Notes under the pieces: generated by a model
Database searches by the model: none
Told to the model about the DNA's origin: nothing
What the model saw: only the letters and a program-made list of their open reading frames with translations
Source: an uncultured virus (IMG/VR IMGVR_UViG_2791355434_000002)
Taxonomy: Duplodnaviria > Heunggongvirae > Uroviricota > Caudoviricetes
IMG/VR virus record: IMGVR_UViG_2791355434_000002
Length of the DNA stretch: 63,857 nt
Direction: 5' to 3' (one strand)
In this document: positions 1,410-40,176 of the stretch, one piece after another
Layout: each line of letters starts with the position of its first letter
How positions within the stretch are numbered: position 1 is the first letter of the stretch
Translations under genes and position numbers: made by a program

Positions 1410-1952
1410 ATGACGACTCTGTACGTGTTCGGTGCGGCGGCTCCCCCGGTGTTCGAGGTGTCCGAGATCATCAAGGCCGGGCAGGACCGGGGGTGGGATG
1501 TGTGCCTGGGGTTGACGCCGACCGCGGCCCAGTGGCTGGAGCGGGACCTGCCCGCGTTGGAGGAGCTGACCGGGCGGCCGGTGCGGTCGGAGTACAAGGC
1601 GCCGGGTGAGCCCGACGTGTGGCCGGCGGCGGATGTGATCCTGGTCGCGCCGGCGACGTTCAACACGGTCAACGAGTGGGCGCTCGGGCTGACGTCGAAG
1701 TTCGTGGTCGGGGTGGTCGCGGAGGGGATCGGGAAGGGTATTCCGATCATTGCAATGCCGTGCGTGAATGCCGCCTACGTGCAGCATCGTGCGTTCGACC
1801 GGAGTGTGGCGGAGCTGCGGGGCATGGGTGTGACGCTGTTGTACGGGGAGGGTGGGTTCGTGCCGAATCAGCCTGGGGAGCGGCGCCCGGAGGGCTATCC
1901 GTGGCATCTGGCGCTGGCCGCGGTAGAGGCGGTTGTCGGTGCCCGCCCGTAG
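1410..1952 (+). CDS. Flavoprotein (HFCD/CoaC-decarboxylase-like fold)
   Basis: Motifs GLTPTAAQW, ADVILVAPATFNTVNEWALG and IAMPCVN are typical of the Flavoprotein family. Confidence 0.85.
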   Translation: MTTLYVFGAAAPPVFEVSEIIKAGQDRGWDVCLGLTPTAAQWLERDLPALEELTGRPVRSEYKAPGEPDVWPAADVILVAPATFNTVNEWALGLTSKFVVGVVAEGIGKGIPIIAMPCVNAAYVQHRAFDRSVAELRGMGVTLLYGEGGFVPNQPGERRPEGYPWHLALAAVEAVVGARP

Positions 1953-7919: not shown

Positions 7920-8528
7920 ATGAGCATCGAGTGGACTGACACCACCAGCACGGCAGCTGCCGCCCTCAGCGCGGTTGCAGCCGGTGGGGCCTGGTGGGCA
8001 GCGCGGCGGTCGGCATCTGCCGCGAAGGCCCTGACCCGCATCGAGGAAGCGCGGTGGAAGGCGGACCGCACGCCCCAGTTCGACCTGAAGCTGATCGAGA
8101 CCGGGAACGGGCAGGCCCTCCTGCAACTGCACCTCACCGGCCCGGACTCCCTGGAGCACCTCGACAGCATCACCATCAAGGTCGGCAACGACGACAGGAA
8201 CCTCGCCGACATAACGCCGGCACCTGGGGTCACCCGTGCCGACCTCGACAACTTCGTGTGGGGGCCGTACAAGTTCACCCACGGTGCAAACGGGACCGAC
8301 GAGCACGGCCGCGGCCCCGCCCCGTTCCCTCTCGCTGTGGGTACAGGCTCCCGGTTCGCCATGCAGCGGACCTACCCCGGCCCCTGGATGGAGGGGAAGA
8401 CTCAAGGCATGTGGCAGGGCGAGTACGTGGGCAAGCCGATCCGGCTTGCTCTGACGTGTCGACACGGGGCGATGGAGTGGGTTCTCGCCCGGCAGTTGGA
8501 GAACCCTCTCTTCGAATCCGGCGCCTAG
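7920..8528 (+). CDS. Hypothetical membrane-anchored protein
   Basis: 202 aa with an N-terminal hydrophobic anchor. Confidence 0.7.
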   Translation: MSIEWTDTTSTAAAALSAVAAGGAWWAARRSASAAKALTRIEEARWKADRTPQFDLKLIETGNGQALLQLHLTGPDSLEHLDSITIKVGNDDRNLADITPAPGVTRADLDNFVWGPYKFTHGANGTDEHGRGPAPFPLAVGTGSRFAMQRTYPGPWMEGKTQGMWQGEYVGKPIRLALTCRHGAMEWVLARQLENPLFESGA

Positions 8529-8644
8529 CACCCGCGCCCCTCCCCCGCTGTTTGGTCACAACTCCGTCACCTCCGGATCATGTGGCAGCACGGGGCGTGT
8601 GGGGGTCGCTACGGTCGGGCCTTCCGGACCATCTTGGGAGCCCC

Positions 8645-9259
8645 ATGCGTACCCGTACTGCCTCTGCTGCTGTTCTCCTGCTCGCCTTCACCGTCACCGC
8701 CTGCGGTAGCAGTAGCGAGCCGGCCGCACCGAAGTCCACTGCGAAGGCGTCGGCCCCTGAGCATGAGGTGGACTGCTCGGATACGTCGCTGAATCAGGCG
8801 GACTGGATGGAGCACTGCAACACGGAAACCCCCGCCGAGTCGGAGGCCCCGCCGACGGACCTGGCGTTCGGGAAGCCGTTCGCATGGCCGGACGGTCTGG
8901 AGGTCACCGTCCTGGAAGCGAAGGTGTTCACCGACTGGGACGAGTACGAGGAGCCGGACCCGAAGAGCACCGAGTTCCGGGTGCGGGTGAAGGTCGACAA
9001 CAAGAGCGGGCAGGCCATCGACCTGGACGAACTGTCGGTAACGGTGGACGGGGCGACGAACGGCGGCACGGCTGCCCTGACCGTGTTCTCGAAGGGCAGC
9101 GCACCGTTGGAGGGGCGCCTCGCGAAGGGCGTCTCGGCGGTGAAGACGAGCGACAACTCGTTGGAGAAGCGGTACGGCAAGGACATCGTGGTGACGGTGC
9201 AGCGGACCACCGCCGACGATGTCCTCGCCTTCCCTGAGTTCACCGGCACGATCAAGTAG
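8645..9259 (+). CDS. Lipoprotein (DUF4352-like Ig-fold)
   Basis: Signal peptide MRTRTASAAVLLLAFTVTA-C with lipobox; FRVRVKVDNKSG. Confidence 0.8.
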   Translation: MRTRTASAAVLLLAFTVTACGSSSEPAAPKSTAKASAPEHEVDCSDTSLNQADWMEHCNTETPAESEAPPTDLAFGKPFAWPDGLEVTVLEAKVFTDWDEYEEPDPKSTEFRVRVKVDNKSGQAIDLDELSVTVDGATNGGTAALTVFSKGSAPLEGRLAKGVSAVKTSDNSLEKRYGKDIVVTVQRTTADDVLAFPEFTGTIK

Positions 9260-10504: not shown

Positions 10505-10519
10505 GGTGGTCTCGTTTCT

Positions 10520-10861
10520 TCAGACGGGCTGCGCGAGGGCGCGGCAACCGATGACGGTTCCGGAGGCGTTGCGGACCTCGCGGTAGGGGACGAGGAGGTC
10601 GTTGCGTCGGTCAGCAAGAGCGAGGGCGACAACGAGGGACACGATGTACTGGTAGCCGTCCTGTTTGGGCGGCAGGTTCTGTGCGTGCCCGAACTCGACC
10701 AGCACGGGCCACATGCCGCTGCTTACTTCGTTCGTTGCGAGCCGGGCCGGAGTCGGCTCAGGCTCGTAGACCTTCATGAGGTGCGCGTCGAGATCGTCGC
10801 TGCCGTCCTCGCGCTCTCCCCAGTACAGCCGGATGGGGTGCGGCGTCAGGTTGAGGATCAT
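10520..10861 (-). CDS. Conserved phage hypothetical protein (NLTPH motif)
   Basis: ATGA overlap with the endolysin stop; MILNLTPHPI...YIVSLVVA...IGCRAL. Confidence 0.7.
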   Translation of the reverse strand: MILNLTPHPIRLYWGEREDGSDDLDAHLMKVYEPEPTPARLATNEVSSGMWPVLVEFGHAQNLPPKQDGYQYIVSLVVALALADRRNDLLVPYREVRNASGTVIGCRALAQPV

Positions 10862-37434: not shown

Positions 37435-37443
37435 CATGGCGAA

Positions 37444-37465
37444 GGGCCGCCCCGAAGGACGGCCC
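37444..37465 (-). terminator. UUCG-tetraloop hairpin between convergent units (portal versus RAMP operon)
   Basis: Minus strand gggccgtcc-TTCG-gggcggccc, directly 3' of array 4. Confidence 0.7.
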
Positions 37466-37537
37466 ACCATGGATTGCCTCGCCACGCCCAGGCGCGCCCC
37501 GGCGTGACTTGCCGTGCCTGCCGTACCGAGCCAGGCC
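37466..37537 (-). ncRNA. Pentamer-periodic array 4, putative guide RNA
   Basis: Minus strand: ggc ct ggc tc ggt ac ggc a ggc ac ggc aa gtc ac gcc gg ggc gc gcc tg ggc gt ggc ga ggc aa tcc at ggt. Confidence 0.75.
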
Positions 37538-37545
37538 CGTGTCCC

Positions 37546-38058
37546 TCATCCGGCTTCGAGCCGGGCGAGGCGTTCTTTGAGCTCGGCGGTCTCCGCATCG
37601 CTGCGGTCCTGCCGTTCCACGATCTCGCGTATCTGGGCTTCGCTCTTCTGCTGCCGCAGGTCGAAGCGGGCCATCATGTCGTTCTGCCGGGTGAGGACTT
37701 GGGCCACGGCCAGGGTGAGGCTGCGGGCGGCGGGGTCCATGCCGTTGAGGTTGACGTTGACGACCTTGTTCACGCCGCGTTCGATGGCGTGCTTCGACTT
37801 GTCCTGGTATTCGCGGGCGAGCATGACGTGCTCGTTGGGGGCCGCGATCCTGTAGCCGACGCCGGGGACGGGGCGGAGTGCCCGCTTGTTCGCGGTTTCA
37901 AGCTCCTCGCCGGTGCGCGCCATGGCCTTTTGGATGGCCTTGCGGTCCTTGTCGGGGTGGAGTCCGAGTGCGTCGGCGGCTTGGTCGTAAGTGACGACGT
38001 CGGACTTCTGGAAGAGGTCGTAGAGGATGCGCCACCGGGCGGTGGGCCGGGTGGTCAC
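37546..38058 (-). CDS. Accessory protein coupled to the RAMP-like gene (possible winged HTH plus coiled coil)
   Basis: GTGA overlap with the RAMP-like stop; VTYDQAADALG...VPGVGYRI; C-terminal heptads; 170 aa. Confidence 0.75.
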   Translation of the reverse strand: MTTRPTARWRILYDLFQKSDVVTYDQAADALGLHPDKDRKAIQKAMARTGEELETANKRALRPVPGVGYRIAAPNEHVMLAREYQDKSKHAIERGVNKVVNVNLNGMDPAARSLTLAVAQVLTRQNDMMARFDLRQQKSEAQIREIVERQDRSDAETAELKERLARLEAG

Positions 38059-38627
38059 AGCTTCTCCAGGGTGGCGGTGAAGCGCCCGTAGCGGGGGCGG
38101 TAGTCGCCGAGTCCGATCATGGCGCCTGCGGTGTTGGCGATGTCGGCGAGCTCGTCGAAGGCAAGGACCGTGGTGTCGAGGGTCCCTTCGGCGGCGGTGG
38201 TCCACTGGCGGAACATAGGGCGGCATCGCATGATGCGGTTCTGCTGGACCTTGACGGATGCCATGTGGCGGAAGTTCTCGTCTTCCCAGAGGCCGTTGGC
38301 GTCGCGGGGTCCCTGGTAGGCGAGGGGGTTGATGTTGGTGGAGACGAAGACGCCTCGGGTGACCTTGACGCCGGAGCGGGTGACCTTGGCGGCGTCGACG
38401 AGGCAGCGTTCGACGTTCTGGCCGGGGATGAAGGGGCCGACGTCGGGGTCGAGGTAGAGGCCGCCGAGGTGTTCGAGGCGGGCGAGTTCCTCGAAGTCGT
38501 CGTCGGTCTTCTTGCGCTTGCTGCTGATGGCCTTCATGGCTTTTGCGGCGGGGTCGAGGGGGTTCGCAAGGCGGGCGTTGTGCATGAGGAGTTCGGCGGT
38601 GCCGGTGATCGTGAGACGAAACTGCAT
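38055..38627 (-). CDS. Stand-alone RAMP/Cas7-like protein
   Basis: AGGAG RBS, 190 aa; first strand FRLTITGTAELLMH, PFIPGQNVERCL (compare RAMP IPGSSLKG), C-terminal Gly-rich loop GLGDYRPRYGRF. Confidence 0.8.
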   Translation of the reverse strand: MQFRLTITGTAELLMHNARLANPLDPAAKAMKAISSKRKKTDDDFEELARLEHLGGLYLDPDVGPFIPGQNVERCLVDAAKVTRSGVKVTRGVFVSTNINPLAYQGPRDANGLWEDENFRHMASVKVQQNRIMRCRPMFRQWTTAAEGTLDTTVLAFDELADIANTAGAMIGLGDYRPRYGRFTATLEKL

Positions 38628-38667
38628 GCGAAAGCTCCTAGCGGTGTGCGGAGTTGAAGGGGAGAGA

Positions 38668-38755
38668 ACCAAGCCTTGTCTCGCCTGGCCTTGACTTGCC
38701 ACGTCGGGGCCCGCCATGGCAAGGCTCGCCACGCCTGGACAAGCCAAGCGGCGCC
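38668..38755 (-). ncRNA. Pentamer-periodic array 3, putative guide RNA
   Basis: Minus strand: ggc gc cgc tt ggc tt gtc ca ggc gt ggc ga gcc tt gcc at ggc gg gcc cc gac gt ggc aa gtc aa ggc ca ggc ga gac aa ggc tt ggt. Confidence 0.8.
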
Positions 38756-38758
38756 TTG

Positions 38759-38807
38759 TGGTGCGTGGGCGTGCGGGGAGTCGAACCCCACCGAAGACCA
38801 TCCGCCC
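38759..38807 (-). ncRNA. tRNA-like minihelix separator (copy 2)
   Basis: gggcg-gatggtcttcg-gtgggg-TTCGACT-ccccgc-a-cgccc-acgcacca. Confidence 0.7.
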
Positions 38808-38814
38808 TGTACTG

Positions 38815-38877
38815 CCCATGAGTGGCCTTGCCAGGCCATGGCCCGCCAAGTCACACCTCGTCGCGCTAGGCCACGTC
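38815..38877 (-). ncRNA. Pentamer-periodic array 2, putative guide RNA
   Basis: Minus strand: gac gt ggc ct agc gc gac ga ggt gt gac tt ggc gg gcc at ggc ct ggc aa ggc ca ctc at ggg. Confidence 0.75.
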
Positions 38878-38878
38878 C

Positions 38879-38922
38879 TGCGTGGGTGGCGGGGAGTCGA
38901 ACCCCGCTACGACCATCCACCC
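38879..38922 (-). ncRNA. tRNA-like minihelix separator (copy 1)
   Basis: gggtgg-atggtcgta-gcgggg-TTCGACT-ccccgc-caccc-acgca. Confidence 0.72.
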
Positions 38923-38925
38923 GGC

Positions 38926-38983
38926 CCCAAGGCTTGCCTTGCCATGGCTTGGCACGTCCGGGCTAGACATACCGAGCCACGCC
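38926..38983 (-). ncRNA. Pentamer-periodic array 1, putative guide RNA
   Basis: Minus strand: ggc gt ggc tc ggt at gtc ta gcc cg gac gt gcc aa gcc at ggc aa ggc aa gcc tt ggg. Confidence 0.75.
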
Positions 38984-39115
38984 TTCCAAGCGGTGCCACG
39001 GACACTTCGTGACCTCGGAGAGCGTGCTACGACGCTAACACACGTCACCTTCAAAGTAGAGGCTGAACGCCACTGCTACCTACGAATCCCAGGAGGAGTG
39101 TTTTGCGGTGAAGTC

Positions 39116-39268
39116 ATGGACCGCATGCTCGGAACCTGGGCCAAACCGTGGTGCCCGTACCGCCGACGCCCGGCAGGCGTCGACTGCCCATCACGCGACC
39201 GGAGCAAGAAGGCTCAACGGACGCTGGAGAAGCAGCAATGGCGGCGAGAGGCGCGCGCAGGCGAATGA
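39116..39268 (+). CDS. Small basic hypothetical protein
   Basis: MDRMLGTWAKPWCP...RTLEKQQWRRE. Confidence 0.4.
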   Translation: MDRMLGTWAKPWCPYRRRPAGVDCPSRDRSKKAQRTLEKQQWRREARAGE

Positions 39269-39301
39269 GGTGGGCGGGGGCTCGCGGCCTACGTTGGCGG
39301 C

Positions 39302-39470
39302 TTAGCGGCGGCGGGTGCCGCGTCGTGCGGGGAGTGTGCGGTAGCCGGTGGTCTTGCCGTGGCTGCGCTTCCGGGCGCGCGACCAGCGCTTCGAGAAGGT
39401 CTGCTTGGTGGCGTACATCCAGCTATCGCCACTGGGCTCGGGAACGGACTTGTCCGCGTCTACGTGGCAC
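39302..39470 (-). pseudogene. Frameshifted small Arg-rich protein
   Basis: VPRRRGQVRSRAQWR-stop; removing 4 nt (ATAG) restores QWRWMYATKQTFSKRWSRARKRSHG... Confidence 0.45.
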
Positions 39471-40176
39471 AGTGATCATCACCTCCTTCGAGGTAGGCCT
39501 TGGCGGCGGCCCACCAGTTCGGGTGTTCCACGTAGTGGAGCACCATGTTGCAGGTACGGCAAAGGGCGCCGCGCACTCTGCCCGTCTCGTGACAATGATC
39601 CAACGCCGTCGCCGGTTTGGCGCGACAGATCCAACATTGACCGTCGAAGTGCTCCACCATTCGCTGCCATTGAGGTGCACTTACCCCATAACGGATCAGT
39701 CGTGCACGACCGGCCGTGCTACCTGTGCAGTCCACGCACCAACGCTGTCGATTACTCGTGGGTTGGTACGGCTTCTCGCAGATGGCGCACGCTCGTTTAG
39801 TCGTGGGTCTCCGCTGCACGTTCACGTTTGAGCAGGCGCGCGAGCAGTGGGAGACGGTGCGAACCTTGGGGGCGAAGGACTTGCCACAGTTGGCGCACGG
39901 CTTGGTGCGCGCTTCCTGGGCGGCCTGCGAGTACCCGACCCCGAAGCAGGCTCGCGAGCAGTAGCGTCGCGGTCTTGCCCTCTTGTCTGGCCGGTAACTG
40001 AACTGGGTGTCGCACGTCTCGCACGCCATCAACACATAGCCTTCGGGGTGCGGCTTCCTCTGGGCTGCACCTGAACAGGATCGCGAGCAATACTTGACCT
40101 CACGGTCGTATCTCACTCGGTGATCGAATGATGTTCCGCACTGTTGGCATACTGACCTGGCTATACGCTTGGGCAT
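39460..40176 (-). CDS. Endonuclease VII-family (HNH-like) nuclease with repeated zinc-ribbon domains
   Basis: CWIC...LDHCHETGRVRGALCRTCN; three CxxC...(Y/H)CSRxC repeats plus a fourth variant. Confidence 0.9.
   Translation of the reverse strand: MPKRIARSVCQQCGTSFDHRVRYDREVKYCSRSCSGAAQRKPHPEGYVLMACETCDTQFSYRPDKRARPRRYCSRACFGVGYSQAAQEARTKPCANCGKSFAPKVRTVSHCSRACSNVNVQRRPTTKRACAICEKPYQPTSNRQRWCVDCTGSTAGRARLIRYGVSAPQWQRMVEHFDGQCWICRAKPATALDHCHETGRVRGALCRTCNMVLHYVEHPNWWAAAKAYLEGGDDHCAT

Follow-up and report, generated by a model that had tools for sequence, protein, structure and literature searches.

VIPR (Viral Interference Programmable Repeat) systems (bioRxiv 10.64898/2026.04.26.720920) have been described in a series of preprints (bioRxiv 10.64898/2026.04.26.720920, 10.64898/2026.04.26.720927, 10.64898/2026.10.15.759431 and 10.64898/2026.10.21.760802), which serve here as reference. 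The system pairs Vipr, a RAMP protein of ~20 kDa, with the accessory gene vap, and its guide RNAs (vrRNAs) are built of 9-16 GGY/NN units that end in a conserved 3′ tail; the dinucleotides (NN) pair with DNA, one base being skipped between dinucleotides, usually the codon wobble, and the targets are mostly competing phages and satellites (bioRxiv 10.64898/2026.04.26.720920). For the repeats 'a related consensus' and internal degeneracy are allowed, and the vrRNAs are expressed as RNAs of ~100 nt that are recovered together with Vipr on purification; the complex silences the target DNA (VIPR preprints). Here, a 63,857-nt stretch of DNA from an uncultured virus of the Caudoviricetes (IMG/VR record IMGVR_UViG_2791355434_000002), referred to as the window, was analysed with a focus on positions 38668-38983 of the minus strand, for which an earlier reading of the letters (the original prediction) had proposed a non-contiguous code. 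All features named below lie on the minus strand unless stated otherwise. Very probably the region supplies the guide RNAs of a VIPR system in a Streptomyces-type (pro)phage, and among the published types this system comes nearest to type II. The 5-nt guide code is already known from the 2026 preprints, and the window holds a further VIPR system, not a new mechanism; its notable points are that the triplets are relaxed to G-N-C, that a tail resembles tRNA and that a natural target was identified.

Type II is represented by the Escherichia phage SUSP1 and by a Pseudomonas fulva prophage. Like these, the locus in the window is phage-borne and encodes a Vipr homologue with a vap1-like gene directly 3′ of it, and repeat tracts with a 5-nt unit, a fixed triplet and a hypervariable dinucleotide are located on both sides of the gene pair. 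The tracts, named A1 to A4 in the order of the minus strand, are followed by a structured 3′ tail with the exception of A3, and a natural target was found in a competing prophage with the one-base skips on wobble positions. The locus differs from type II in its triplet, which is G-N-C and not GGT (GGC 46%, GCC 21%, GAC 12%, GTC 8% and GGT 8% of 52 units), and in its tails, which behind the upstream tracts are tRNA-like minihelices, whereas the four tails of SUSP1, taken from the phage record, are H-type pseudoknots in agreement with the VIPR preprints. Further differences are the tail-less tract A3 in the vipr leader, the plain GC hairpin behind the last tract and the host, a high-GC actinobacterium.

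The vipr gene (38055-38627) encodes a 190-aa Cas7-like (RAMP) protein assigned to phrog_4652, a family of unknown function in PHROGs. It matched the PDB entry 36pp_D, 'SUSP1 Vipr protein', over residues 4-186 with an E value of 7.9e-32, and shared 62 of 190 residues (33%) with the SUSP1 vipr product taken from the phage record. The RNA-contact residues H17, K33, R39, K82, R138, D177 and R179 of SUSP1 Vipr, whose roles are described in the cryo-EM preprint (bioRxiv 10.64898/2026.04.26.720927), are conserved, and W178 is replaced by Y; the aligned residues of the window protein are H16, K32, R38, K81, R136, D175, Y176 and R177. The protein departs from SUSP1 Vipr in the pocket for the third repeat base, where E71/M72 are replaced by Q70/N71. 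By analogy with SUSP1, the vipr product would thus be the protein that binds the repeats. An AF2 model of Vipr (pLDDT 96.5) had its best matches among solved folds in Csm3/Cas7 subunits (Foldseek E values of 5e-6 to 3e-4, TM ~0.5). The Vipr family is large: a threshold of E <= 1e-3 gave 2491 cluster representatives, and tblastn detected it in 130 phage records, among them phiSUSP1, the Gordonia phages MakoManhole and Trine and the Mycobacterium phage LittleE.

With regard to the altered pocket, N was observed at the position of SUSP1 M72 (window N71) in all 11 actinophage-type Viprs examined, and the repeats of those loci end in C (77-100% of units), those of SUSP1 in T (92%); this relation between residue and third repeat base is a contrast between two clades only. 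The change of W178 to Y showed no correlation with a relaxed second repeat base across 12 loci.

Directly 3′ of vipr, the vap1-like accessory gene (37546-38058) encodes 170 aa from a GTG start that overlaps the vipr stop codon, and is translationally coupled to vipr. Its product is homologous to those of the genes following vipr in MakoManhole (E 7e-21; annotated there as 'DNA binding protein'), LittleE (E 5e-13) and, weakly, SUSP1 (E 5e-5). The structure model (pLDDT 78) combines a winged-helix-like domain at the N-terminus with a long helix, and its fold matches were weak (best E 0.02), all of them to winged-helix DNA-binding domains. On the basis of the Vipr homology and the vap1-like gene, the locus was assigned to the VIPR systems and placed nearest to type II. 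It is a minimal two-gene locus of vipr and vap with phage structural and nuclease genes as neighbours: the window (68.7% GC) carries genes for tape measure, major capsid protein, large terminase, portal and HNH/endonuclease VII proteins and represents a phage or prophage, and among its genes neither cas1 nor cas2 nor any other cas gene beyond the RAMP homologue was found.

For the characterization of the repeats, base identity was determined on the minus strand of 38668-38983 as a function of distance. It amounted to 0.45, 0.47 and 0.46 at lags of 5, 10 and 15 nt, respectively, and to 0.21-0.30 at the other lags between 1 and 15. This lag analysis revealed no extra 15-nt periodicity, so that the tracts are not coding repeats, and a pentapeptide-coding repeat was ruled out. 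Each unit consists of G-N-C, mostly GGC, and two free bases, and the units form three tracts within 38666-38983 and a fourth at 37474-37518. Tract A1 (38929-38983) has 11 units with the dinucleotides GT TC AT TA CG GT AA AT AA AA TT, and tract A2 (38823-38877) has 11-12 units with GT CT GC GA GT TT GG AT CT AA CA (AT), followed by a conserved linker and then tail 2. Tract A3 (38666-38755), with 17-18 units and without a tRNA-like tail, runs into the ribosome-binding site of vipr and therefore belongs to the 5′ leader of this gene's mRNA. Tract A4 (37474-37518) lies downstream of vap and has 9 in-phase units; three more units (GGC-TC, GGT-AC and GGC-A) were observed ahead of it at 37519-37532, one base out of phase, and may be the decayed 5′ part of the tract.

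Across the 52 units of the four tracts, position 1 was G in 94% and position 3 was C in 92%, and position 2 was G in 58%, C in 23%, A in 12% and T in 8%. The information content of positions 4 and 5 was 0.10 and 0.17 bits; positions 1-3 were partly selected by the rule used for finding units, and positions 4-5 are free of that bias. The dinucleotide strings recovered by this layout were the same as in the original prediction, and the triplets were, as proposed there, mostly GGC (24 of 52) with GCC (11), GAC (6), GGT (4) and GTC (4) as variants, so that GGY triplets (GGC and GGT together) make up 54% and GCC, GAC and GTC the remainder. The motif GCC-AT-GGC is present in A1, A2 and A3 and CCATGG in all four tracts, as had been noted, the fourth being located outside the region at 37518-37474. 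The 5-nt period, which had been described as free of slippage, holds within each tract and not across the 316 nt, where A1, A2 and A3 begin at 38983, 38877 and 38755 and are thereby shifted by 1 and 2 nt modulo 5. Nor does the region consist of repeats throughout, the ~40 nt behind A1 and A2 (38922-38884 and 38807-38767) being conserved structured tails. The tracts themselves folded no better than shuffled sequences (z -1.2 to +0.5), and Tandem Repeats Finder reported nothing in the tract region. The upstream tracts occupy the gap between an endonuclease gene (39460-40176) and vipr.

In order to search for targets, the dinucleotides of each tract were joined by a single wildcard base, and these gapped patterns were scanned for exact or near-exact matches. 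The pattern of A1 (11 dinucleotides) had one exact match in the viral collection, with 22 of 22 bases, at positions 1501-1532 of locus L013 in an 83.8-kb record of an unrelated provirus with 68% GC. The target reads GTG TCG ATC TAC CGA GTG AAG ATG AAG AAG TTC and lies in frame within an ORF of 345 aa that carries a Phage_integrase domain (Pfam E 4e-15), a tyrosine integrase, and all 11 skipped bases are third codon positions. The irregular units flanking A1 (TGG-AA and GGG-GC) do not match the target, so that the match covers exactly the regular units. Six of the 11 triplets of this guide are non-GGY. As controls, gaps of 0, 2 and 3 bases gave at best 14 of 22 matches for A1 in the target provirus and 100 shuffles of the unit order at most 17 of 22; the search with gaps of 0-3 nt and shuffled controls put forward in the original prediction thus singled out a gap of one base. 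When 37 tracts from all loci were compared at three gap lengths with ~230 kb of sequence, only the pair of A1 and the provirus stood above background, the next 22-base pattern reaching 18 of 22. A1 had no match with up to 2 mismatches in 121 Streptomyces genomes, nor had a reversed-pattern control, and no exact match in a metagenome collection far larger than the viral collection.

No tract matched the window beyond its own copy, and the tracts of the relatives were at background level against the window, the provirus and the related loci. Within the A1 match, position 2 of the repeat agreed with the skipped base in 6 of 11 cases versus an expected fraction of ~0.37, which is not significant for a code at this position. 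The window holds no homologue of the targeted integrase (best tblastn E 0.08), and the provirus holds neither a vipr gene nor a tail. By its sequence, A1 is programmed against the tyrosine-integrase gene of another provirus, a target that fits inter-phage competition, and the prediction that the dinucleotides form a non-contiguous guide of 22-30 nt is supported, with a target for one of the four tracts. The window and the provirus have only a few short blocks in common. A 357-bp alignment with 74% identity was observed between window positions 10512-10860, beside an amidase (endolysin) gene, and positions 8420-8775 of the provirus (G402), and a few weak protein-level blocks are shared in addition; both elements appear to draw on a common gene pool.

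The 190-aa protein was further used to search for related loci, and six viral contigs and two genome contigs were recovered. The same tract architecture upstream of the vipr homologue was present in five of the six viral contigs (L001-L004 and L006) and in a Streptomyces contig (L007); this recurrence upstream of a homologous gene, including one of the two genome loci, excludes a chance origin. L005 has no upstream tract and two downstream tracts, and no tract was found upstream of the vipr homologue in the distant L008. In the latter, a Zixibacteria metagenome-assembled genome with a Vipr homologue of 42% identity, the finder for G-N-C units detected no tract in 6 kb, and the repeats of this locus may follow a different consensus. 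All 36 units of L006 read GGC on the vipr strand. In L002 and L003 an additional inverted tract lies past an AT-richer block or putative promoter; read outward, in the direction of the tract itself, its units are GGC, an argument for a feature of the RNA strand.

The close relative L007 (Vipr 95% identical, vipr 91.9% identical at the nucleotide level) allowed a comparison of orthologous arrays. The block 39057-39029, the leader and both tails are nearly unchanged, tail 2 being identical, and the tracts differ in content and, by multiples of five, in length. Over 40 aligned units the mismatch at repeat positions 1 to 5 was 0.08, 0.42, 0.05, 0.55 and 0.50, respectively, values that are if anything underestimates given that the unit alignment maximised matches; the mismatch at third codon positions of vipr was 0.17. 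Divergence is unequal over the five positions of the unit, in favour of the original prediction, which equal divergence would have refuted, and concentrates at positions 2, 4 and 5. Of the earlier claim that variation concentrates in two fixed positions, the part concerning positions 4 and 5 therefore stands, and position 2 has to be added to the variable ones. Next to the well-conserved vipr, the vap protein of the window (37546-38058) was observed to share only 49% identity with that of L007 (3570-4100), and vap appears either to have been exchanged or to be evolving much faster than vipr.

The tails behind A1 and A2 share a common plan: an outer stem of 5-6 bp, a bulge of 10-11 nt with a conserved GG, and, below a loop of 7 nt (TTCGANT), an inner stem of 6-7 bp with G-C as its closing pair. 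An unpaired base (A in 15 and G in 5 of 20 copies) comes immediately after the outer stem's 3′ strand, outer and inner stem stack to 11-12 bp, and no CCA follows the tail. Tail 1 (38884-38922) has a 10-nt GG-containing bulge, a 6-bp inner stem and the loop TTCGACT and scored 56.9 bits with the model R1; tail 2 (38767-38807) carries a compensatory outer-stem change relative to tail 1 and scored 60.1 bits. In total, 20 copies were found in eight loci: two each in the window, L007 and L003, one in L004, three each in L006, MakoManhole and Trine, and four in LittleE. They recur one to four times per locus and in every case 3′ of a repeat tract; none was found within the DNA examined of SUSP1, L001, L002, L005 and L008. 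In the alignment of the 20 tails 98.1% of the cells are paired, and 10 of the 11 pairs change on both sides (51 cells). None of 500 shuffles reached the observed covariation, and sliding the partner by 1-3 columns lowered pairing to 42-68%. The first T and the C of the loop are invariant, four other loop positions are at least 90% conserved, and the closing G-C pair is present in all 20 copies.

The T-loop of tRNA has the consensus TTCRANY closed by a G-C pair, and the acceptor/T-arm minihelix of tRNA combines this loop with a stack of ~12 bp and a D-loop. Judged by their sequence and pairing, the tails of A1 and A2 appear to be mimics of such a minihelix with the GG bulge as a stand-in for the D-loop, the D arm and the anticodon arm being absent and the GG bulge in their place. 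The tails are not tRNA, nor do they belong to any Rfam family. ARAGORN predicted no gene; three of six sub-threshold Rfam matches in the region were to tRNA-like families, including mascRNA and the tymovirus tRNA-like element, and fell on the tails, the best score being 19.8 bits for mascRNA at a threshold of 42.5. No tail in five related loci had an Rfam match at E <= 1. The R1 model had 4 matches in 61 Streptomyces genomes and therefore does not detect ordinary tRNA genes. About half of the 20 tails show a complementarity of 4-5 bp between bulge and T-like loop (GGTC-type bulge, TTCGACT loop); the other half lacks it and no covariation was seen that would indicate a bulge-loop pseudoknot as in SUSP1. 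The upstream vrRNA tail of SUSP1 shares 16 of its first 17 bases with tail 1, and the actinophage tail therefore looks like this cap in a remodelled form. Main texts and figure legends of three of the VIPR preprints, as distinct from their supplementary data, do not contain the term 'tRNA', nor does the text of bioRxiv 10.64898/2026.10.21.760802 contain 'tRNA-like', and the tRNA-like tail is possibly an undescribed variant of the VIPR tail.

Tail 4 (37435-37472) is a GC-rich hairpin of another type whose end coincides with the stop codon of the portal gene, which is convergent; 3 of its 10 predicted pairs show compensatory changes and none is broken among seven sequences. Apart from the VIPR loci, a single minihelix (R1 50.9 bits in each case) was observed in two Streptomyces genomes, L020 (~1495-1540, reverse strand of the locus) and L021 (~1495-1540), with no repeat tract in the ~330 nt upstream and no vipr within 1.5 kb, preceding a conserved small gene. 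These lone minihelices may represent a wider RNA module of mobile elements.

Several results weigh against the assignment to VIPR. Of the window triplets, 42% are non-GGY (GCC, GAC and GTC), and in SUSP1 the second G of the triplet is read by the protein according to the VIPR preprints. Tract A3 exceeds the published range of 9-16 units and lacks a structured tail. A target was found for one of the four tracts only: A2, A3 and A4 had none in the exact-pattern scans of the viral collection, A3 had no match in the metagenome collection or, with up to 3 mismatches, in 401 Streptomyces genomes, and A2 and A4 had none in five related phage records; these scans were stricter than the threshold of at least 80% given in the preprint (bioRxiv 10.64898/2026.04.26.720920), and genuine targets may have escaped them. 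No RNA-seq run containing the sequence was found. That the tails take part in processing is pure inference. According to one rival explanation, the tracts are protein-binding platforms only, comparable to the RNA bound by TRAP, and act as a leader, an autoregulatory element or a protein sponge without guiding by the dinucleotides. Such a platform would show exactly the conserved triplets and unconstrained 2-nt spacers seen here, A3 lies tail-less in the 5′ leader of vipr, and three of the four tracts lack a target. This explanation is nevertheless very improbable, given the in-frame, wobble-skipping match of A1 over 22 of 22 bases with clean controls and the homology to a Vipr for which guiding was demonstrated experimentally (VIPR preprints). 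Free spacers would, in addition, diverge at a near-neutral rate, whereas positions 4 and 5 differ about three times as much between the window and L007 as the third codon positions of vipr.

Two further explanations place the function elsewhere than in a guide. If the repeats acted at the DNA level, as a packaging, replication or protein-wrapping site beside the terminase and portal genes or as a slippage-prone simple sequence, the mixture of GGC and GCC in the window tracts would be understandable, since G-S-C is its own reverse-complement class, and so would the position of the locus next to the portal gene and the unit-sized indels between relatives. The strand-specific GGC of all 36 units in L006, the inverted additional tracts of L002 and L003 with GGC in their own outward direction and the RNA-type covariation of the tails, which includes G-U pairs, speak for RNA instead, and a microsatellite would not fix positions 1 and 3 while positions 2, 4 and 5 vary; an element of DNA is accordingly rated as highly improbable. 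Scarcely any weight was given to the other explanation, in which tRNA genes or phage attachment sites, the latter as copies of the 3′ end of a host tRNA, left the T-arm-like elements as remnants and the repeats are incidental. The TTCGANT loop, the G-C closing pair and the acceptor-like strand followed by A do resemble tRNA 3′ halves, and sub-threshold tRNA-like Rfam matches fall on the tails. The outer stem, however, has both of its strands, and these covary, with two-sided changes in 5 of 5 pairs; anticodon and D arm are absent, ARAGORN called no gene and no integrase lies beside the tails, which instead occur in one to four copies per locus, each behind a repeat tract, in eight loci, and the 4 matches of R1 in 61 Streptomyces genomes likewise disagree with tRNA remnants. 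A G-quadruplex former, a TRAP-like RNA and a packaging or origin element had been earlier candidates and are weak rivals at most.

For the VIPR system of the window, the following course of events is proposed. One minus-strand transcription unit from ~39030 to 37435 would comprise, in this order, A1 with tail 1, A2 with tail 2, A3, vipr, vap and A4 with the hairpin tail. By homology to the work on SUSP1, Vipr protomers would polymerise along a tract from the tail end, one per 5-nt unit, each holding the conserved triplet flipped out and presenting the two variable bases. The presented dinucleotides would pair with double-stranded DNA, leaving one unpaired base between dinucleotides, and the bound filament would silence transcription of the target. 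The tRNA-like tails of A1 and A2 would replace the pseudoknot of SUSP1 as 3′ cap or filament nucleation end, and could offer host tRNA-processing enzymes a cutting site by which a polycistronic transcript is converted into single guides. A3 may be a guide without cap or a binding site of Vipr on its own mRNA. It is conceivable, and put forward tentatively, that in actinophage VIPR systems generally a tRNA mimic replaces the cap and recruits RNase Z/RNase P, perhaps also the CCA-adding enzyme, for cutting of the guides, and that a relaxed G-N-C/NN repeat is read; the freedom of the second base of the 'fixed' triplet is part of this joint claim and is just as tentative.

Among the VIPR systems, those with hammerhead-ribozyme-interspersed arrays (types I and V) and with staggered arrays also carry several guides per transcript with a structured separator, according to the available VIPR texts, and in those arrays as in the window the separator could define the guide ends. 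Unlike the hammerhead, the separator of the window is a tRNA mimic without self-cleavage and would need host enzymes. The resemblance to the Cas7 backbone of class 1 CRISPR systems (Csm3/Cmr4/Cas7) lies in the RAMP fold, in one protomer per fixed guide step and in periodically flipped bases; the step is, however, 5 nt with 3 hidden and 2 pairing bases, compared with 6 nt and 5 pairing bases for Cas7 and its crRNA, and the guides are hard-wired and not acquired, with neither CRISPR repeats nor cas1/cas2. CRISPR-Cas itself was rejected as a candidate for the lack of identical repeats of 23-50 nt and of cas1/cas2. Punctuation of non-tRNA transcripts by tRNA-like elements is known from the mascRNA of MALAT1, the tRNA-miRNA units of murine gammaherpesvirus 68 (MHV68) and the tRNA-like domain of tmRNA. 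Like these, the tails of the window place an acceptor/T-arm mimic without anticodon arm beside a functional RNA, and RNase P or RNase Z could recognise them. The RNA bound by TRAP in Bacillus consists of 11 G/UAG triplets with spacers of 2-3 nt and is similar to the tracts in the triplet with a 2-nt spacer, the 5-nt period, the single subunit per triplet and the single-stranded state of the RNA; the window differs in that its spacers hold target information and its protein forms a RAMP filament and not a TRAP ring.

Upstream of the tracts, the conserved block at 39029-39057, which is near-identical in L007 while the flanks diverge, is a candidate promoter region; a scan of 38400-39600 for consensus (sigma-70) promoters and terminators found none. 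On the plus strand, a small ORF with a good ribosome-binding site (39108-39305) was observed to diverge from the VIPR transcription unit. A 68-nt part of it (39122-39189) is 79% identical to an unannotated stretch of the Streptomyces phage ZL12, located ~600 bp from the integrase/recombinase gene of ZL12. In the deposited genomes of related phages, the tracts and tRNA-like tails were observed to lie inside gene calls, in Trine (L011, 3085-3355) within the 'hypothetical protein' coding sequence gp40 and in LittleE (L012, 2164-2419) within the 'hypothetical protein' calls gp35 and gp36 on the opposite strand, and at least part of what is annotated there is probably non-coding vrRNA array.

VIPR is a discovery only months old, a pre-CRISPR-like mode of RNA-guided DNA binding, the code of which was worked out in phages of E. 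coli and Pseudomonas as far as the available preprints describe it. The locus of the window indicates the same code in a high-GC Streptomyces-type phage together with a defined target in nature, the integrase gene of another prophage, and with more than half of the triplets of the matching guide being non-GGY it would widen the known tolerance of the repeat. For the annotation of actinophage genomes it means that 'hypothetical protein' calls in deposited records overlap tracts and tails. If the tRNA-shaped tails are true processing signals, they would explain the maturation of multi-guide transcripts in RNase Z-dependent hosts, and multiplexed guides could be designed directly after them, as nature's counterpart to the engineered tRNA-gRNA arrays.

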